64,000 bases of DNA from an uncultured Candidatus Saccharibacteria bacterium. Lineage in GTDB: Bacteria > Patescibacteriota > Doudnabacteria > UBA920. Positions 11,011-61,722 of this stretch are shown piece after piece; position 1 is the first letter of the stretch, and the number at the start of each line of letters is the position of its first letter. The notes under the pieces are model-generated. The model was not told the origin of the DNA. It searched no databases and worked only from the letters and a program-made list of their open reading frames with translations. Both the position numbers and the translations under genes were made by a program. The stretch is taken from the NCBI GenBank assembly GCA_964436545.1, contig CAYTCJ010000002.1:110738-174737 (forward strand). Reading direction: 5' to 3'.

Positions 11011-12121
11011 AAATATTTGGATTTTAGCTCTGTCAATTTTACTCCTATTTAACTTTAACGTTTCATTGGTCCTCGCCCAAACCCATGTGGGTAGCACGTA
11101 TAGTGGCCCCGAAGCTCAAATTAAACAGTTTCTTTGCACCCCTTCGGATGCCAGCACTAATGGCGGTAAAGCGAATAATGACTTATACAACTGTATTAAT
11201 CGCATCTACCGCTTTGCCTTAGTCACAGCTGCTTTTTTTGCTGTCTTTATGATTGTCTTAGGTGGCTGGGTATATATGTCAGCCGAAGGCAACGAAGAAT
11301 CGGTAACTAAAGCTAAAGATATTTTAGTTACCAGCATTGCTTCCATTGTAATTCTTTCCAGTGGCTATGTCCTCTTAAAATTTATCAATCCCGACTTAAT
11401 TCAATTCCAACCCATTCAACCGCCCAGCGTGGTGGGGGTGGAGAGAGGGTATAGTTTTGATAAAATTGATCCAAAAATCTTTGGTGAATTTAAAAATTTA
11501 GATAAAGCAAATTCCACCCCTCAAAGTTTTGCAAAAACTGAAATTACCAATTGTAAATCAACCACAGGTAGAATTAATGGCTTTTATCAATTTTCACAGT
11601 GTAATGGAACTTGGGTAAATGATTTATATCCATCGAAAACTGAAACCTGTAAAGAATCTAATGGCAGTGCCAGCACTATTGGCACATCAGCTTGTGGCCC
11701 AAGTTCTATGGCGACCGTTTTAAAATATTACGAAACCAAGCAACAATTAAAACCAGAAGCTAGGGTAAAAAATATGGAAATTAATCCTCAAACCATTGCT
11801 GGTCTGACTGTCGAGCTTAACGAAAGAACTTGTGGACTTGGTACCAACGCTGGCATGTTCTTAAAAGTTGCTAAGTTATATGGTTTGAATGCAAGTACAA
11901 TTTCAGGGTGGACCAATATTACCAAAGAATTAAATAACGGTCATCCAGTGATTGCAGCTATGGGACCCGGCAAATTCACAAGCGGGGGGCACTTTATAGT
12001 ACTACACAAAATTGAGAATAATATTATTTATATAGCTGATTCAGGTCCAAGAGGGATAGATAAATCAGATATCGCTACTGTTCAAAAAGAATTAAAATAC
12101 GCAATATTAATTTCACCTTAG
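10994..12121 (+). CDS. Secreted two-TM module protein with a C-terminal papain-like (C39-like/CHAP-like) cysteine peptidase domain
   Basis: N-terminal module identical to the previous hydrolase. The C-terminus has a Cys nucleophile context (SACGPSSMATVLKYY) and a downstream GGHFIVLH...D, consistent with a C39-like peptidase. Confidence 0.55.
   Translation: MKNMNKNIWILALSILLLFNFNVSLVLAQTHVGSTYSGPEAQIKQFLCTPSDASTNGGKANNDLYNCINRIYRFALVTAAFFAVFMIVLGGWVYMSAEGNEESVTKAKDILVTSIASIVILSSGYVLLKFINPDLIQFQPIQPPSVVGVERGYSFDKIDPKIFGEFKNLDKANSTPQSFAKTEITNCKSTTGRINGFYQFSQCNGTWVNDLYPSKTETCKESNGSASTIGTSACGPSSMATVLKYYETKQQLKPEARVKNMEINPQTIAGLTVELNERTCGLGTNAGMFLKVAKLYGLNASTISGWTNITKELNNGHPVIAAMGPGKFTSGGHFIVLHKIENNIIYIADSGPRGIDKSDIATVQKELKYAILISP
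11068..11455 (+). repeat. Copy 2 of the 388-bp perfect direct repeat
   Basis: Identical to 9710-10097. Confidence 0.9.
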
Positions 12122-12180
12122 TCGCATAAGATACATTATGCGACGCTATGTGTCTTAAATTATCACTGCTTCCTAATAAA

Positions 12181-12211
12181 TATCCATGTGTATATAAACA
12201 CATGGATATTT
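12181..12211. repeat. Perfect 14-bp-arm palindrome AAATATCCATGTGT-ata-ACACATGGATATTT. A second palindrome, GTCGCATAA-gataca-TTATGCGAC, lies at 12122-12146
   Basis: Read directly in the convergent intergenic region. No T-run follows, so it may be an operator or a hairpin rather than an intrinsic terminator. Confidence 0.6.
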
Positions 12212-12419
12212 ATTTACCTATGAATTCTTCTCCCCTTTTTTTACTAACACCGATTTTAAAATTTGTATAAATGTTTATTTTTTCTTTCTACAAATATAAC
12301 TCCCCCCAACATAGTGTAAAAATTTAAACAAAAGTTAACGTTCGCATTAAATTAAAAGTATATTCTAAAAGTATATTCTGTTTTTACCTTATTAATTAAG
12401 CATAAAAAAACTGGCAGTA

Positions 12420-12765
12420 AAATTAAAAACTGCCAGTGGACTAAAAGAGGTTGGAAAGCAAAAAGCTCTCAGGGCCGGAGGAGACTGGCCCGTTTACAAT
12501 CCTCTTTTAGCCACTGGCAGTTACCAGGCACCAGCCTGGCAAAAAAAATCGATAGCGCAAACTTGGCTGTTTTAGCCAAACACCCACCCCTGAGTGCAAG
12601 ACTTCTATTCAAATAGCCTTTTGAGCTAATTGAAGATTCTTGGGTTTGCGCTAAGGCACTTAACTTTAGGAGCAAAGCGCTCAACTGAAAAGCTAAGCTA
12701 AACTAGACGCAAGGGAGAAGAAGCCTTGCTATTTAGGAAATCCCGCCCTTTGGGATTTTTATTTG
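12420..12765. ncRNA. GC-rich structured non-coding region of about 340 bp (candidate ncRNA, strand uncertain)
   Basis: A 20-bp imperfect long stem (12430-12450 / 12500-12520) is followed on the minus strand by a T-run. A plus-strand terminator lies at 12738-12761. There are many internal hairpins and only a spurious 71-aa antisense ORF. GC content is far above the flanks. Confidence 0.35.
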
Positions 12766-12795
12766 ATGTAATCATGTCAGATTTGGTAAAAAAAG

Positions 12796-13182
12796 TCAAC
12801 GACTGGATTTAGTAAACCCGGCTTGCTTAGCCTCGGTTTCTGTATTAAAACACCTTTCCGGTTTTGTATTTTTATAAAAAGCACCGGTAGGTAGATGGTA
12901 CGTCATTTTGCCGGTAGAGCTAATATTGCCCTTAATTTTGCAGGTTTCTAAGGTATTAGGGGTAGTACTACCCTCCCCTACCTCAGGCGGTGAATTTTGC
13001 TTAAAGGTGGAATTTTTAGTATAATTAATGAGTAATTCATGCCGTTTTTTTTCACTCAGGGTTTCGCTTTTATACTTGCCTAACCCAAACCCCGCCAAAA
13101 ACGTTAAAATAAAACATAAAGCAATTTGTAATTCCTTAGGGTGATCCTTAAACCAATTTTTTATTTCTGTATAATTTACCAT
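12796..13182 (-). CDS. Membrane-anchored protein with a small conserved Cys-containing C-terminal domain (CKIKGN...YHLPTGAFY...CFNTETEAKQAGF)
   Basis: N-terminal transmembrane helix. The C-terminal about 45 aa resemble a small 'C-x-IKGN...YH-P-G..Y...CF.tE.eA...GF' module seen in secreted bacterial proteins. Confidence 0.45.
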   Translation of the reverse strand: MVNYTEIKNWFKDHPKELQIALCFILTFLAGFGLGKYKSETLSEKKRHELLINYTKNSTFKQNSPPEVGEGSTTPNTLETCKIKGNISSTGKMTYHLPTGAFYKNTKPERCFNTETEAKQAGFTKSSR

Positions 13183-31945: not shown

Positions 31946-32168
31946 AATTTTTTAATCCCCCCTCTTAGGGTAAGAGGGGGCTAGGGGGTGATATTGTTTA
32001 ATTCCAACCCTAAAATAATACACGAAAAAACCTTTCTTGACAAAATTTTCTCTGTGGATTAAAATAACCTAAATTATGAAATTCCAAAACCTTTCCAGCA
32101 TTATTAGCATTATTATTCCTCGCTTCAGGCAGTGGAAGAGTTTTTAATGCTTTAAATTAAATTCTCTG

Positions 32169-32200
32169 AAATCCCTGCCGTTAGGCAGGGATTTTTATTT
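32169..32200 (+). terminator. Intrinsic terminator (AAATCCCTGCC-gtta-GGCAGGGATTTTTATTT)
   Basis: Perfect stem plus T-tract inside a 1.7-kb region with no coding sequence. Confidence 0.6.
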
Positions 32201-32289
32201 TTATGGCTATATCATAAAAAAACAATCCATTAGTCCTATTGGTCATATAAATCTTATAAGACCTATATGACTTATATGACACAAACAAC

Positions 32290-32811
32290 CTTTAGACCGC
32301 CACCCCTTGCCCCCGAAGACTCGGGCGCAGAGAACATCGGCCTAAAAGGCCACTAAAAGGAGGATTTATGTTGGTGTTTCTGAAGATGGATGGGTACGTG
32401 AGTACCCAGGCGGGCCTCAATGCCCTCCAGGCCCAAGGGCTCCGGCCTGCGGGTCGCCAAGAAATCAGCGTCGCCCTAGACATGGGCGACAATGAAAAAA
32501 ACACTTATATGGTTTTTGCCAGACAGAAGGACTGGCAAACATCCTGCCCAGAGGCGTCAATCCGCCAATGGGAACCTACGCCGATCACAACGTGCCCGGT
32601 ATTGTACCGGGTTTGGATGGGAAATCCAGAGCCCCGAGAAATCCGGGAAATGTCGGTGGTGGGCGTGTGGCACGACCCCATATTTGTTGGGGTCAAGGAT
32701 GACTAACCGCGCGGGGAGGGGTGCAGAAAGATTTTGTATTTATAGGCCTTAAAACAGCCAACTAAAGCAAATTCTCTCTGCCCCCTCCCCGCAGAAAATT
32801 CTTTTTTTATC
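32290..32811 (+). other. GC-rich island of about 520 bp. Candidate structured RNA and/or foreign small gene
   Basis: GC content far above the flanks. Three or more frames are open on both strands. Multiple perfect hairpins. A 15-bp long-range stem GCGGGGAGGGGTGCAG / CTGCCCCCTCCCCGC (32710-32793) is followed by a T-run. Confidence 0.4.
32368..32706 (+). CDS. Candidate 112-aa ORF with a strong Shine-Dalgarno sequence (AAAGGAGGA, 4-nt spacer). May be spurious within a structured RNA
   Basis: Strong RBS plus ATG. GC-rich codons unlike the host genome. No recognisable domain. Confidence 0.25.
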   Translation: MLVFLKMDGYVSTQAGLNALQAQGLRPAGRQEISVALDMGDNEKNTYMVFARQKDWQTSCPEASIRQWEPTPITTCPVLYRVWMGNPEPREIREMSVVGVWHDPIFVGVKDD

Positions 32812-33012
32812 TTCTACCTTTTGACTCTAATTTTGCAGATATTATCCAACTATGGTATGGTATGAATACCTTAAACTTAGCATTCGGATTTGATTATTAC
32901 TTTTACTAATTAAATCCGAGTGCTAAGGGACCTAGCACTATTCAGCGAAGCCACAGGGTTTCCGGTTAGCCACTCTCCTCCAGCTAACCTGCTTAATAGC
33001 CCCCTGTGTGCC

Positions 33013-33042
33013 AAAAAAAATGGGGCGCTTACCGGTGCCCCA
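33013..33042 (-). terminator. Minus-strand intrinsic terminator (TGGGGCACCGGTAAGCGCCCCA + T8)
   Basis: Stem TGGGGC/GCCCCA with a 10-nt loop, followed on the minus strand by TTTTTTTT. Confidence 0.5.
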
Positions 33043-33184
33043 CTCTCAACTTTTGACAAAATTATTAAAATCCTATAAACTTTTTCTATGAAGCGATTAC
33101 AAACCAACTTAAGCCTTAACCTCCTTACCCTTACATACTTAAGGCGTAATTTGGTTTAGTTTTCAGTTAATACTTCTCTTTACC

Positions 33185-33216
33185 AAACCCCCGCCTTAAG
33201 GCGGGGGTTTTTTTAT
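33185..33216 (+). terminator. Plus-strand intrinsic terminator (AAACCCCCGCCTTAAGGCGGGGGTTTTTTT)
   Basis: Perfect 8-bp GC stem plus T7. The upstream ACUUAAGGCG (33139-33148) can pair with the 5' arm, giving an antiterminator-like alternative. Confidence 0.65.
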
Positions 33217-33425
33217 TTTACTGTAAACAGTAAAATAACCCTTCGTAGTCCCGCCATAGCGGGACGAAGTAGGGTAAATGATTTACCAAAGGAGGAAAAG
33301 TTAGTTGGTGGTCAGATTTTAGATTTTTAATTAAAAATGTTGGCTTTAAAATCAAATTTTAGGTTCTCCACAGAGTCGAACACTAAAATGATAAAAGTCT
33401 AAAATATGACCACCCAACAACAACC

Positions 33426-33460
33426 CAAAAAAATTTCTTCGGGCTTTAAGCCCGAAGACG
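33426..33460 (-). terminator. Minus-strand intrinsic terminator (CTTCGGGCTTAAAGCCCGAAG + T7)
   Basis: Perfect 8-bp stem followed on the minus strand by AAATTTTTTT. A second terminator about 115 nt downstream of the rplA terminator, delimiting a short GC-rich transcript candidate. Confidence 0.5.
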
Positions 33461-33521
33461 TATACATTCCCCGACAGGGGGATCCAGGTGTCCCCTGGCC
33501 AACCCTGTGGAACCGCCCTGT

Positions 33522-33547
33522 CCGGCGAGCCCCCGCTCGCCGGTTTT
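33522..33547 (+). terminator. Plus-strand hairpin plus T-run (CCGGCGAGC-cccc-GCTCGCCGG-TTTTT)
   Basis: Perfect 9-bp stem plus T5. Confidence 0.5.
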
Positions 33548-33573
33548 TCTTTTTATTAAAATGCCAAAAACAT

Positions 33574-33612
33574 GAAGACGGACTTCTGGGATTTTCCCAG
33601 AGGTCCGTCTTC
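33574..33612 (-). terminator. Terminator hairpin immediately downstream of rplA
   Basis: GAAGACGGACCTCTGGG-aaaat-CCCAGAAGTCCGTCTTC on the minus strand, followed by a U-rich tract. Confidence 0.55.
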
Positions 33613-33620
33613 AGATGGAC

Positions 33621-54152: not shown

Positions 54153-55634
54153 TTAATTCATCTCCGGATGCTTTTTATGCCACGCGGTGACTTGCTGGTA
54201 AGCATAACCTAAATTAAATATGGTTTGCTCGCCCCACTGGGGGCCAATAATTTGGAGACCCACGGGCAATTCTATTTCTGCGCCATCGCTAGGTTTACCC
54301 ATTCCGCAAGGCACGGACACAGCCGGAAGTCCGGCTAAAGAAGAAGGAATATTTAATTGATCGGCAATATACCCAAACAAAGGATTATTTTTAGCATTCC
54401 CAATTTTTACCGCAACATTTGGACTAGCGGGACATACCAAAGCATCAACCTGTTTAAAGACTTCTGCAAATTCATTTACAATTAAGCGTCGCACTTTTTG
54501 TGCCCGTTTATAATACGCATCATAATAACCCGCGGACAATACGTACGTACCGGTAAGAATTCGGCGTTTAGCTTCGTCCCCAAAACCTTCGGCACGGCTT
54601 TTGGCATAAACTTCATAAAGATTTTTGGCTTCACGAGAGGAATGCCCATAACGAATCCCATCGTACCGCATTAAATTAGAAGAAACTTCACTGGGACAAA
54701 TTATGGCATAAACCAAAGAACCGTATTTCGTGTTAGGCAAACTCACTTCTGAAACTTTAGCGCCTAATTTTTCTAATTCCTTAACCGCGGTTAAGACTGC
54801 ATTTTTTACCCCCGGCTCCATACCTTCCACAAAATATTCTTTGGGAATTCCTAGTCTCAAACCTTGAATATCTGCTGTTAAATTTTGAGTATAAGTTGGC
54901 ACCGGCACATCACCGGTAGTAGAATCGTGAGTATCTTTGCCGGAAATAATTTCAGCTAATTTTGCCAAATCTTCCACCGAATAAGCCACAGCGCCCGGAC
55001 AATCCAAAGAACTACCCATGGCAATAATGCCGTTTCTGGACACCCGACCATAGGTAGGCTTCCAGCCACTAATCCCACAAAGTGAAGAAGGTTGCCTAAT
55101 GCTTCCACCGGTTTCGGTAGCGGTTGCCCAAGGTGCCAAACCTCCTGCCACAGCCGATGTAGAACCACCACTACTACCACCCGGAATTCTGCTAATATCC
55201 CACGGATTTTTGGAAGCTCCAAAAGCGGAAGTTTCCGTACTGCTCCCATGAGCAAATTCATCTAAATTGGTTTTACCCAATAACACGGCTTTTTGCTCTC
55301 TTATTTTTTTTGTAACTTGACCTTCATAAGGAGGTAAATAATTTTCTAAAATTTTACTGGCAGCTGTGGTTTTTACTCCTTTGGTTAAAAACAAATCTTT
55401 GGAAGCATAAGGGATTCCGCACAAAAAAGGGTTTTCTCCCCCGCTGGCCATATATTCATCGGCTTCTGTAGCCTGTTTTAAAGCTTCTGCTTCACAAACC
55501 GTAATAAAGGAATTCAACTCGGTATCGTATTTTCTCACGCGCGCTAAAAAATACTTCGTCAATTCCACAGAAGAAACTTTTTTCTCATCTAATAACTTTC
55601 GCAGTTCAGTGAGTGATAAATATTCAAAATTCAT
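54153..55634 (-). CDS. gatA: Glu-tRNA(Gln) amidotransferase subunit A (amidase signature)
   Basis: Amidase signature GGSSGGSTSAVAGG and Ser-cisSer-Lys triad context. 493 aa. Confidence 0.9.
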   Translation of the reverse strand: MNFEYLSLTELRKLLDEKKVSSVELTKYFLARVRKYDTELNSFITVCEAEALKQATEADEYMASGGENPFLCGIPYASKDLFLTKGVKTTAASKILENYLPPYEGQVTKKIREQKAVLLGKTNLDEFAHGSSTETSAFGASKNPWDISRIPGGSSGGSTSAVAGGLAPWATATETGGSIRQPSSLCGISGWKPTYGRVSRNGIIAMGSSLDCPGAVAYSVEDLAKLAEIISGKDTHDSTTGDVPVPTYTQNLTADIQGLRLGIPKEYFVEGMEPGVKNAVLTAVKELEKLGAKVSEVSLPNTKYGSLVYAIICPSEVSSNLMRYDGIRYGHSSREAKNLYEVYAKSRAEGFGDEAKRRILTGTYVLSAGYYDAYYKRAQKVRRLIVNEFAEVFKQVDALVCPASPNVAVKIGNAKNNPLFGYIADQLNIPSSLAGLPAVSVPCGMGKPSDGAEIELPVGLQIIGPQWGEQTIFNLGYAYQQVTAWHKKHPEMN

Positions 55635-58427: not shown

Positions 58428-58455
58428 TTTTTCCGATTAGGACATGAACCTTAAT

Positions 58456-59180
58456 TCTTTTTTTTTGAGGAGGAGGGCTAGAGCTTGCCCCGTACTTGAT
58501 ACGGGGGGTGAGCTATCTATCTTTTCCCCTCTTTTCCAAAGAGGGGTTAGGGGAGTTAATTACTTCTAGCATTCTCTGATAAACTCCTTCTATATTTTTT
58601 ATCACATCAATATTCTGAAACCTAATAACTTTAATACCAATCAATTTCAAATATTCAGTTCTTTGTTTATCGGCTTTAATCAGACTTTCCTCAAAATGAT
58701 GTCCTCCATCTAACTCCACAGCTAACTTTTTTTCTGGACAATAAAAATCTAAAATATAATTGCCTATACCAAACTGCCTAAAAAATTTACAACCTTTAAT
58801 TTGTCTATTCCTTACAATATTCCAAATTTTCCGTTCTGGTTCTGTTAAATTTTTCCGCAACTTTCTTCTTAAATCTTTATTTTTAGCAATATTACTTATC
58901 AACATAACTCCCTCCAAATAACTCCCTCCAACTCCCTCTTTGGAAAAGAGGGAGGGTAAGACAATGTATTTTGTAGATCCTCTCTTTTCCAAAGAAGGTG
59001 GTTAGGAGATTCCTGTTCCCTCTCTTTTCCAAAGAGAGGGTTAGGGTGAGTTAGCTGTCTTCTTCCCCACTTTTCCAAAGCATGCCCTGAGCTTGCCGAA
59101 CGGGAGAGGGCTAAAGCTTAACCTGTACCTGATGCGGTTTGCATTCCATACCTAGTGGGCTTGCCCTGAGATAATTGATT
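58456..59180. repeat. Hairpin-repeat array surrounding the DUF559 gene, with five or more copies of an about 30-bp unit CCCTCT(C)TTTCCAAAGAG(A)GGGTTAGGG(G)GAG in both orientations, plus GAGCTTGCC x3
   Basis: Copies at about 58529-58562, 58933-58972 (inverted), 58976-59008, 59015-59050 and 59063-59085. About 35-bp direct repeats GTGAG(C/T)TA(T/G)CT...TTCCCC(T/A)CTTTTCCAAAG lie at 58500-58545 and 59046-59082. GC content is elevated. Confidence 0.75.
58513..58992 (-). CDS. DUF559 endonuclease-domain protein (Vsr/restriction-endonuclease-like fold). Both ORF ends are encoded by flanking hairpin repeats
   Basis: The core (LDFYCPEKKLAVELDGGHHF...D...VIRF) matches DUF559. The N-terminal MEKRGS...LFSKEGVGG and the C-terminal EKRGKDR are translations of CCAAAGAGGGG repeat units. 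The likely real start is MLISNIAK. Confidence 0.65.
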   Translation of the reverse strand: MEKRGSTKYIVLPSLFSKEGVGGSYLEGVMLISNIAKNKDLRRKLRKNLTEPERKIWNIVRNRQIKGCKFFRQFGIGNYILDFYCPEKKLAVELDGGHHFEESLIKADKQRTEYLKLIGIKVIRFQNIDVIKNIEGVYQRMLEVINSPNPSLEKRGKDR

Positions 59181-59286
59181 TTGTTTCAAATTTCCTTATT
59201 TGCATTAAAATTATACCATAAAAAGTTAAACCGGCGAAACGCAGTAATGCGCTCCGCCGGTTGTTGCGTTTTCCTTCCTCCCCTTC

Positions 59287-59691
59287 CTAATGATCCTCCC
59301 TCTGCCACCAGTCCTGCATTTCTTCACTGCAAAGCTCGCAACGCAAAGTTACTTCAGTAACCCCGTACTGCTTGAGCTGTGTATCATCGATGTTAATGAC
59401 TCTCCACTGATGATCGCATTTGATCTTCTTGGGGAAATACGGAATGATAGTTTCATCTGGATGCACATGAGCGTACATACTTTCCTCTTTCTGATTGAAT
59501 TTTATTTTTTTGGCAACCCCGACGACCTTAGTGCCGGAGTAAAAACAAAAAACCCTTCCTCGCAAGGAAGGGGCTAAATTCATCTGCATCCTAAACTTGT
59601 TTACCCCGTAGCGAACCAAAGGTTCTGCTATTGGAGTTTCAGGATTTATTTTAGATGCTGAAATTAATTCAGCATGACAAGAAAAAATCAA
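59287..59691 (-). CDS. Hypothetical 134-aa protein with Cys pairs (CDHQW...CELCSEE), possible zinc ribbon
   Basis: Overlaps the upstream YerC-like gene by 4 nt (ATGA), implying co-translation. No family recognised. Confidence 0.4.
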   Translation of the reverse strand: MIFSCHAELISASKINPETPIAEPLVRYGVNKFRMQMNLAPSLRGRVFCFYSGTKVVGVAKKIKFNQKEESMYAHVHPDETIIPYFPKKIKCDHQWRVINIDDTQLKQYGVTEVTLRCELCSEEMQDWWQREDH

Positions 59692-60810: not shown

Positions 60811-61722
60811 ATGCTCACCTACGATCATATAAATAAAAATAAAAGGGAAAGCTGGATACTCATATTCAGCTTTTTGGTAATTATCTCCGTATTAGGTTTT
60901 GTGTTTAGCCAAGCATACAACGCGCCGGAAATTTTATTTTTTGCAGTGGGTTTTTCGATTTTTTCTTCGCTAATTTCGTATTATTTTTCCGACTCCATCA
61001 CTCTTGCCCTCTCGCACGCACAAGCAGTGGACAAACAATCCAACCCGGAGCTGTATCGCCTTGTAGAAAACCTCTGTATAACCGCCGGCCTGCCTACCCC
61101 TAAAATTTATATAATTGACGATACGGCGCCTAACGCTTTTGCCACAGGCAGAGACCCTAAGCATGCAGTGGTGTGTTTTACCACCGGGATTTTAGCCAAA
61201 TTAGAAAAAACCGAATTGGAAGGCGTAGTAGCGCACGAACTTTCCCACATTGGCAATTATGATATTCGCGTAATGACTTTGGTAGTTGTTTTAGTCGGCA
61301 CAGTCACACTACTTGCTGACTGGATGCTAAGAGCTTCCATTTTTGGCGGACGCAAAAAATCCAACAGCGAAGGCGGTGGACAACTCCAAGCTATTCTAAT
61401 TATTGTGGGTTTAATTTTAGCCATCCTCTCCCCCATAATTGCCACGCTCATAAAATTAGCCGTTTCCCGCAAAAGAGAATTTCTAGCCGATGCCAGCGGT
61501 GCCCTGCTTACCCGCTACCCGGAAGGCTTAGCTAGGGCTTTGGAAAAAATTAGTGCTGATACTGAACCTCTGGAAGTAGCCAACAAAGCTACCGCCCATA
61601 TGTATATTGTGAATCCTTTAAAAGCAGACGAGCAAGGGAAAGTCGGATGGTTAGCTTCGCTTTTTAACACCCACCCGCCAATAGAAGAAAGAATTGCCAA
61701 ACTTAGAAATATGAACTTATGA
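60811..61722 (+). CDS. htpX: Zinc metalloprotease HtpX (M48)
   Basis: HELSHIGNYD (HExxH) between TM helices. 303 aa. The canonical lemA-htpX pair. Confidence 0.85.
   Translation: MLTYDHINKNKRESWILIFSFLVIISVLGFVFSQAYNAPEILFFAVGFSIFSSLISYYFSDSITLALSHAQAVDKQSNPELYRLVENLCITAGLPTPKIYIIDDTAPNAFATGRDPKHAVVCFTTGILAKLEKTELEGVVAHELSHIGNYDIRVMTLVVVLVGTVTLLADWMLRASIFGGRKKSNSEGGGQLQAILIIVGLILAILSPIIATLIKLAVSRKREFLADASGALLTRYPEGLARALEKISADTEPLEVANKATAHMYIVNPLKADEQGKVGWLASLFNTHPPIEERIAKLRNMNL

Follow-up and report, generated by a model that had tools for sequence, protein, structure and literature searches.

Competition between a terminator and an antiterminator is the platform on which riboswitches and protein-controlled attenuators work, as in the TRAP-regulated trp leader of Bacillus subtilis, and the RoxS/RsaE-type small RNAs (sRNAs) of Gram-positive bacteria carry C/U-rich seeds directed against ribosome-binding sites. 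The bacteria of the candidate phyla radiation (CPR)/Patescibacteria have tiny genomes and, to our knowledge, almost no characterized regulatory RNAs. A further point of comparison is provided by the Bacteroidia, which are poor in Shine-Dalgarno (SD) sequences and in which the anti-SD is kept but sequestered; there, rpsU, the gene for bS21, has a rare strong SD through which it is autoregulated and which reports the availability of the 16S rRNA 3' tail (PMC7797042, PMC9976891, PMC13000453). Here, we describe an element in a 64,000-nt stretch of contig CAYTCJ010000002.1 (hereafter the window, to which all coordinates refer), where a candidate RNA is read on the minus strand from 12764 to 12403. 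We lean, somewhat beyond an even chance, towards its being a stand-alone structured non-coding RNA (ncRNA) gene of ~360 nt. Its family has not been described before, and we encountered it solely in genomes of the Candidatus Doudnabacteria type (CPR/Patescibacteria); the generic claim that it is a functional, independent ncRNA can be put a shade more firmly. It is probably a riboregulator built on a masked SD mimic: selection appears to act on its transcription, on a stable fold of the minus strand and on an SD-like tract placed in a helix that competes with the terminator.

The element occupies the gap between two convergent genes, namely a plus-strand open reading frame (ORF) that ends at 12121 and codes for C39-peptidase and T4SS-pilin domains, and a minus-strand ORF (12796-13182, ending at 12796) whose 128-aa product contains a sunset domain (NCBIfam NF051437), hereafter the sunset gene. 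With T4SS_pilin, M23 and C39 domains among their products, the genes of the window resemble those of a CPR bacterium. An earlier note, made from the sequence of the window, had described the gap as a GC-rich, structured non-coding region resembling housekeeping RNAs, and much of that description stands. The GC content is 0.45-0.47 at 12400-12770, whereas the neighboring spacer (12100-12400) is at 0.23-0.30 and the whole window at 0.386, and both strands of the gap fold with a z-score of about -6 relative to dinucleotide shuffles, none of 100 of which was equally stable. The stem that had been put at roughly 20 bp is in fact longer, with 12428-12453 paired to 12497-12522 in a helix of 25 bp with one bulge, and what had been noted as a T-run after it on the minus strand reads as U5AAU4, then a 9-bp hairpin (12437-12410) and U7. 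Two of the observations in the note hold only in part. While the minus-strand terminator is upheld, the plus-strand one proposed at 12738-12761 is the first hairpin of the RNA seen from the opposite strand, from which it resembles an intrinsic terminator (12736-12760 in our scan). The 71-aa frame (12469-12684) is indeed the sole ORF within the structured region and has no Pfam match, but it is not antisense, as it lies on the minus strand, the RNA's own. The structured element is single-copy in the window.

To explore the distribution of the element we collected ~60 loci surrounding the genes for sunset-protein homologues, from records mostly named Candidatus Doudnabacteria; a contig identical to that of the window is present in SRR11567520. 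The gene order methyltransferase, sunset gene, gap and next gene is kept across these loci, and in about 20 lineages the gap is filled with 180-760 nt of GC-rich, strongly folding sequence (the window, L002, L008, L012, L018, L021, L023, L024, L026, L027, L028, L030, L032, L045, L046, L048, L053, L059 and L069, with L050 and L052 as likely members). Four of these, L032, L046, L048 and L053, have two helix modules in tandem, and L027 represents a minimal version of ~200 nt. The next gene in most relatives codes for a NifS/IscS-type cysteine desulfurase on the same strand, which in most RNA-positive lineages begins ~40-70 nt past the terminator. No nifS was found downstream in the window or in its closest relative L002 (tblastn was null across the 64 kb), and both carry a common AT-rich spacer in its place. 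For further copies of the element we used a duplex-energy scan, which is unspecific and replaced a 32-position helix covariance model that missed the window's own copy, the variable interior being beyond the tolerance of model and filter; it returned no second copy in the 64-kb window or in ~400 kb of related loci.

Comparison of the window with L002 reveals a disparity between the drift of the sequence and the retention of the fold. Nucleotide identity is 79-92% in the flanking genes and 68% in the spacer (82% if only aligned columns are counted), as against 54% in the RNA, with shuffled partners at ~50%. The same is seen across the family, where pairs with ~80% identity in the sunset gene have an RNA identity of only ~50%; the sole pair to retain more is L046/L048, with 76% in the RNA at 87.5% in the gene. 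The folds of the window and L002 nevertheless have 62 pairs in common, 20 of which are changed on both sides, including those of the closing stem of the multibranch domain (two compensatory changes) and five in the long helix. The indels between the two RNAs are non-triplet, and their divergence takes the form of compensatory base-pairing. A further 22 compensatory pairs are found among the four two-module relatives. We also aligned the helix from 20 modules, using only the arms and putting GAAA in place of the interiors. Compensatory changes occur in 13 of the 14 pairs, and the covariation score is 0.40, compared with 0.20 for shuffles (none of 500 reaches 0.40) and at most 0.20 for slid registers. 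This covariation among orthologous regions is the check that the earlier note had suggested. The note had also held that absence from close relatives, or lack of conservation in them, would speak against its proposal: the element is absent from about half of them and, where present, diverges to near-random sequence with its fold kept. The presence of a structured ncRNA is borne out by its syntenic homologues in about 20 related lineages and their compensatory base changes.

The relatives also establish the strand. With all loci oriented so that the sunset gene is on the plus strand (equivalent to the minus strand of the window), there is none among the 18 lineages in which the complement folds more stably than the sunset-gene strand. 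The difference in favor of the latter is usually 20-70 kcal/mol, and in 16 of the 18 it also has more G-U pairs. This asymmetry of folding, together with the G-U pairs, points to selection on RNA rather than on DNA. In L002 the homologue of the first hairpin has a U-G pair that functions on the RNA strand only.

A predicted promoter accompanies the element. At or just past the stop codon of the sunset gene, a promoter with at least 10 of 12 consensus positions is found in 11 of 18 lineages, a level seen in 2.6% of shuffles; its -35 TTGAC overlaps the stop codon in nine lineages, and the -35 of the window likewise overlaps that codon. L026 and L030 have a perfect TTGACA-17-TATAAT, and L046, L048 and L069 the near-consensus TTGACT-17-TATAAT. 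In several relatives the terminator hairpin of the sunset gene overlaps the -35 of the RNA. Thus, as in sRNA genes generally, a predicted promoter and a predicted intrinsic terminator of its own are conserved across species. The predicted features of the window copy, all on the minus strand, are as follows:

12771..12799, minus strand: predicted sigma-70-type promoter, -35 TTGACT (12799-12794), 17-nt spacer, TG-extended -10 CATGAT (12776-12771); the transcription start predicted from it is at ~12764
12738..12758, minus strand: H1, 5'-proximal hairpin AAAUCCC-AAAGGGC-GGGAUUU, preceded by an A-run (scan and fold)
12709..12729, minus strand: H2, hairpin GCAAGG...CCUUGC (minimum-free-energy folds)
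12658..12699, minus strand: H3, irregular hairpin with G-U pairs (minimum-free-energy folds)
12553..12653, minus strand: H4, multibranch domain with closing stem UAGCGCAAAC/GUUUGCGCUA and three inner hairpins, one being CACUCA-GGGG-UGGGUG at 12596-12581 (fold and inverted-repeat scan)
12523..12548, minus strand: U8 run (12548-12541), then H5, GCCAGGCUGGUGCCUGGU (12540-12523) (fold)
12497..12522, minus strand: 5' arm of the long helix, with segment A ACUGCCAGUGG as its GC-rich base and then the purine tract AAAAGAGGA (12508-12500)
12454..12496, minus strand: three-way junction enclosed by the long helix, including two small hairpins (fold)
12428..12453, minus strand: 3' arm of the long helix, with the pyrimidine tract CCUCUUUU and then segment B ACUGGCAGU
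12403..12437, minus strand: intrinsic terminator, segment B ACUGGCAGU paired with segment C ACUGCCAGU (12418-12410) around a 10-nt loop, followed by U7

Inspection by eye shows that GGGUG-like motifs of the H4 type are repeated in many relatives. The only conserved motif of the family, however, is found in an arm of the long helix, and we recovered no conserved ligand-binding core. A k-mer census identified the SD-like octamer AAGGAGGA, which 14 of the 18 lineages have in exact form where the null reaches 4 at most, with the promoter TTGAC and U-runs as the only other recurring words. The octamer always lies in the 5' arm of a helix of 10-31 bp (25 bp in the window), downstream of a variable GC-rich base and an A-rich linker, and the bases after AAAAGAGGA in the window (GAGGAUUGU) agree with the terminal module in those relatives that have two. 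Opposite the octamer, the 3' arm forms a variable pyrimidine tract (CCUCC, CUUCC or CUUUC) that uses G-U wobble pairing and is less conserved than its purine partner, CCUCCUU being present in 9 of the 18 lineages. Between the arms the relatives have 6-192 nt with no common sequence. In a pattern scan of a collection of viral contigs, GCGGCGRAAGGAGGAWT gave 8 matches, all of them ordinary ribosome-binding sites at start codons.

The setting of this octamer is unusual in that SD-like sequences (GGAG, GAGG or AGGA in the 17 nt from -20 to -4) precede just 4 of the 65 ORFs in the window, suggesting that the organism uses SD-dependent initiation little. The typical start contexts are A/U-rich, and several genes have a TATAAT 6-7 nt before the ATG, including the sunset gene, where the distance is 6 nt. 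In this the locus is reminiscent of the rpsU system of the Bacteroidia, wherein an SD-poor genome retains a strong SD-like sequence at one special place, but there the SD is part of an mRNA whereas here it is base-paired inside an ncRNA; rpsU itself was not found in the window. Likewise, the RNA is comparable to RoxS/RsaE in having a pyrimidine tract (UCCUCCUU-like) complementary to the SD and an intrinsic terminator at its end. It differs from them in that this tract is buried in a long helix rather than displayed in a loop, is less conserved than the purine tract facing it and would meet few SD-bearing targets in the genome of the window. As a separate observation, many genes of the window look leaderless or have A/U-rich upstream regions.

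The long helix and the terminator are bound together by a shared strand. The final 3-8 nt of the helix's 3' arm serve also in the 5' arm of the terminator in 15 of the 18 lineages, so that the full helix and the terminator hairpin are alternative structures. In the window, segment C is a copy of segment A, and the three 9-mers stand at 12521-12513, 12437-12429 and 12418-12410. The three segments vary between lineages yet remain complementary, reading ACUGCCAGU / ACUGGCAGU / ACUGCCAGU in the window, GGCGG / CCGCC / GGCGG in L024 and CCAGCAGC / GCUGCUGG / CCGGUAGC in L012. L023 and L027 have separate terminators, and in L002 the helix abuts the U-run directly. Since U-runs come right after the helix in both the window and L002, termination looks constitutive in these two nifS-less lineages. 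Mutually exclusive terminator and antiterminator structures with a common strand are thus present, as in attenuators of the TRAP/trp type, in which segment B likewise pairs either with A, in a long helix, or with C, in a hairpin with a U-run, and the purine-rich, conserved 5' arm would, as in TRAP-type systems, be a natural handle for a trans-acting factor.

We posit that the RNA acts through this masked duplex of SD-like and anti-SD-like strands, while the rest of the molecule would provide a stable scaffold with unconstrained sequence. When the full helix forms, the purine tract would be tightly locked and the 3' tail left free; when the terminator forms instead, the base of the helix would open and the tract be loosened. 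A partner that recognizes AAGGAGGA could then bind the RNA; the most evident candidate would be the 3' tail of the 16S rRNA on the 30S subunit, with an RNA-binding protein as an alternative. The masked tract might serve to sense the 16S 3' tail or act as its decoy, or it might bind a protein or offer a handle for attenuation. A more specific proposal, to which we assign a low probability, is that the RNA is a dedicated SD mimic that pairs with the 16S 3' tail of those 30S subunits whose anti-SD is exposed, and so would titrate or report on a sub-population of ribosomes. In the nifS-linked lineages, capture of the 5' arm by a 30S subunit would free the 3' arm to form the terminator, thereby coupling 30S availability to termination. 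Such an RNA would be a ribosome-sensing riboregulator without a leader peptide, an RNA counterpart of the rpsU/bS21 circuit of the Bacteroidia.

Several considerations weigh against the interpretation of the element as an independent, functional ncRNA with a masked SD mimic. A similar number of lineages to those that have it show a gap of just 0-130 nt from which the element is absent, meaning that it is missing in about half. All the homologues were located via the neighboring sunset gene, which bears on both the range of the family and its independence from that gene. The drift of the RNA, faster than that of its flanks, fits weak constraint or a constraint on the scaffold only. Taking the arms of the helix alignment from RNAfold predictions and setting the interiors to GAAA makes the percentage of paired positions too high. 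As to strand, no lineage is less informative than the window itself, its two strands being near-equal at -140.8 and -139.7 kcal/mol, a circumstance that kept the earlier note from orienting the region, and its form of the motif, AAAAGAGGA, is degenerate. Promoter, start site and 3' end are predictions, and the partner that would read the purine tract is proposed by analogy.

Of the competing explanations, the one that draws on the same A/B/C architecture holds that the element is a cis-acting leader or transcription attenuator of nifS/iscS, with helix A:B as antiterminator and B:C as terminator; a factor on the purine-rich 5' arm (a TRAP-like protein or the 30S) would set the read-through into nifS. 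We consider this explanation doubtful. The shared-strand layout with its preserved complementarity is the classic design of such devices, the position of nifS shortly past the terminator on the same strand agrees with it, and the apparently constitutive termination in the two nifS-less lineages is what it would lead one to expect. However, the RNA is not placed as the 5' untranslated region (UTR) of a promoterless regulated gene: unlike the leaders of attenuators it has its own promoter, and a second one usually follows, for in most of the nifS-linked relatives a TATAAT, often TG-extended, lies 6-14 nt before the nifS ATG, by which nifS looks leaderless and independently transcribed. Moreover, relatives that lack the RNA drive nifS directly from a promoter at the stop codon of the sunset gene, and inside the helix the sequence is hypervariable, as that of a ligand-binding aptamer is not. 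Above all, the RNA persists without the downstream gene in the window and L002. As both are nifS-less and carry a common replacement spacer, the loss most likely predates their split, and the compensatory changes by which they would then have kept the fold after it are the strongest argument against a purely cis role. A different view, which strikes us as unlikely, takes the region as the long structured 3' UTR and terminator region of the sunset gene, or as an insulator between the convergent genes, with no separate RNA function. In its favor, no terminator separates the structured region of the window from the stop codon of the sunset gene, so that sunset transcripts must enter this region and end at 12403-12437; the -10 of the window (CATGAT) is weak; and rapid drift suits a role that needs stable hairpins only. 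Yet in several relatives (L046, L048 and L069) the sunset terminator hairpin lies upstream of, or overlaps, a near-consensus promoter for the RNA, half of the relatives manage without the element, and a bare terminator needs neither 200-700 nt nor the AAGGAGGA octamer nor long covarying helices, of which there are one or two.

A non-functional or selfish insertion, in the form of a palindromic element like a miniature inverted-repeat transposable element (MITE) or a repetitive extragenic palindrome, or of a decaying hairpin-rich spacer, could account for the patchy presence at one locus, the long inverted repeats and the divergence to the level of shuffled sequence between conserved flanks. 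It is nonetheless improbable, given that the element is single-copy in the window with no other copy in the related loci scanned, lacks the usual terminal repeats and target duplications, and shows the strand asymmetry with many G-U pairs, the compensatory changes and an octamer whose position is kept across lineages with sunset proteins only ~40% identical. The possibility that the functional transcript is that of the plus strand, or one of an antisense pair, bounded by the promoter-like site 12335-12364 and the terminator-like hairpin 12736-12760, is slighter still. The window alone would allow for it, with both sites on that strand, equal folding, more G-U pairs on the plus strand (13 versus 6) and a spacer block with a promoter-like site that is conserved in L002; but the equivalent of the minus strand folds better in all 17 other lineages, often by 20-70 kcal/mol, the nifS-linked relatives leave no room for a reverse promoter, and the first hairpin of L008 has no T-run on the other strand. 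We give even less credence to the proposal of the earlier note in its strict form, by which this is a known housekeeping RNA too divergent for current models. Size, GC-richness, strong structure and a strong promoter and terminator would suit such an RNA, and CPR RNAs are often divergent. Against this stand the null results with Rfam and ARAGORN described below, the lack of any invariant core except AAGGAGGA, sequences that are near-random already at ~80% gene identity, absence from the locus in half of the relatives and an architecture that on inspection is unlike the 6S rod, the P4 pseudoknot core, the tRNA-like domain or domain IV of the signal recognition particle (SRP) RNA. Least credible of all is that the locus encodes a small protein, with AAGGAGGA as a true ribosome-binding site or the 71-aa ORF as a real gene. 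Although the octamer is a perfect SD consensus and the close relatives L046, L048 and L032 have an AUG or GUG at the same spot ~6 nt after it, 10 of 21 modules have no start codon (AUG, GUG or UUG) 3-13 nt past the motif and the other 11 would yield unrelated peptides of 2-101 aa. The 71-aa ORF, in addition to its want of a Pfam match, is not matched in L002, where the ORF that was called, of 55 aa, is at another place, and the pattern of divergence, with its compensatory base-pairing and non-triplet indels, argues against a coding region.

The searches for known families were uniformly negative. Rfam 15 at the gathering score gave no match in the whole window, with the RNase P, transfer-messenger RNA (tmRNA), 6S and SRP models included; at E<=10 on 12100-13000 it returned nothing relevant, only microRNA-like and terminator-like noise, and at permissive thresholds on 14 homologous loci again nothing relevant. 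ARAGORN detected neither tRNA nor tmRNA in the window. The housekeeping-RNA idea is thus not supported, and absence in about half of the close relatives together with evolution faster than that of the flanks is unlike an essential housekeeping RNA. For RNase P RNA, there was no match to RNaseP_bact_a/b and P4-type motifs (GGAAAGUCC..., ACAGAA...) were not found on reading the sequence, and for tmRNA both programs were null. The 6S model had no match either, and a string of hairpins with a helix closing a three-way junction, in homologues of 180-760 nt, is not a ~180-nt rod with a central bubble. SRP RNA, whether 4.5S or large bacterial (domain IV with its GNRA tetraloop), had no Rfam match in the window or the 14 loci. 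T-box leaders were rejected for want of an Rfam match and with the GGGUG-like motifs more than 100 nt from the terminator. A retron RNA, a product excised by RNase III, a nifS riboswitch and a small ORF were considered and set aside, and a MITE is regarded as improbable, as stated above; the neighborhood contains no genes for a reverse transcriptase, a transposase or CRISPR. In the literature on structured RNAs of the CPR and on the sunset domain we found nothing relevant. As a lineage-restricted, intergenic, structured RNA of several hundred nucleotides the element does recall OLE, GOLLD, ROOL, raiA and HEARO; however, it matches no Rfam model, and where those RNAs have many conserved nucleotides it has essentially one octamer and helices.

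Because no current model recognizes this RNA, annotation pipelines leave the locus blank. Its anatomy is unusual, the sequence drifting everywhere save for an SD look-alike in a covarying, terminator-competing helix, and this in an SD-poor organism. If the purine tract addresses the 16S 3' tail or a dedicated protein, it would offer a route into the use of the anti-SD in SD-poor bacteria; otherwise, it would still be a clean new family for Rfam. The locus also counsels caution in that GC-rich structured gaps in AT-rich genomes are not automatically housekeeping RNAs.

A few further features of the family and its surroundings deserve mention. The centers of the RNAs of L024, L026 and L045 have in common a hairpin CCCYG-UAAAAYC-RGGG followed by UGAUGA (k-turn-like), as well as the motif GGCCCGAGG...GGAAYGGGYCC, and CGGCUCCCGC is common to the first module of L032, L046, L048 and L053. 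The product of the sunset gene has an N-terminal transmembrane helix and a C-terminal sunset domain (homologues P0001-P0009), and in NCBIfam there are further models in which the domain extends the C-terminus of the ribosomal proteins L17, L4, L20 and S2. Conservation with L002 is higher in the spacer at 12122-12400, where it reaches 82% of aligned columns, than in the RNA; this spacer has the blocks ATACTTTTAATTTAATGCGAACGYTAA and TTTTYACWCTATGTTGGGGG, a tandem 13-mer TAAAAGTATATTC present twice at 12353-12378, and promoter-like sites on both strands, and it may contain promoters, a small transcript or a site for protein binding that remained when nifS was lost. After the C39-peptidase gene come a hairpin GTCGCATAA/TTATGCGAC (12121-12144) and a perfect 40-nt palindrome (12175-12214), the latter kept in L002 with compensatory changes (CCATGTG to CCGTGTG), and these hairpins at 12121-12214 are probably bidirectional terminators.

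Elsewhere in the window, the ~1.7-kb region 31950-33620 has a single ORF that reaches 100 aa (32368-32706; 112 aa, GC-rich, with no Pfam match), which is the only gene of the window with a perfect AAAGGAGGAUUU-AUG ribosome-binding site. Terminator-like hairpins at ~32170-32200, 33180-33215 and 33520-33560 and another AAGGAGGA near 33290 are also present there; Rfam returned only terminator-like noise on this region, which may contain further unannotated small RNAs. The duplex scan additionally recovered repeated palindromes of the CCCUCUUUGGAAAAGAGGG type at 58452-58550, 58930-59043 and 59079-59317. Finally, CTAAACG-like heptamer repeats (GCTAAACGCTAAACGCTAAACG...) stand directly before the start codons of the genes at 54153-55634 (minus strand) and 60811-61722 (plus strand).

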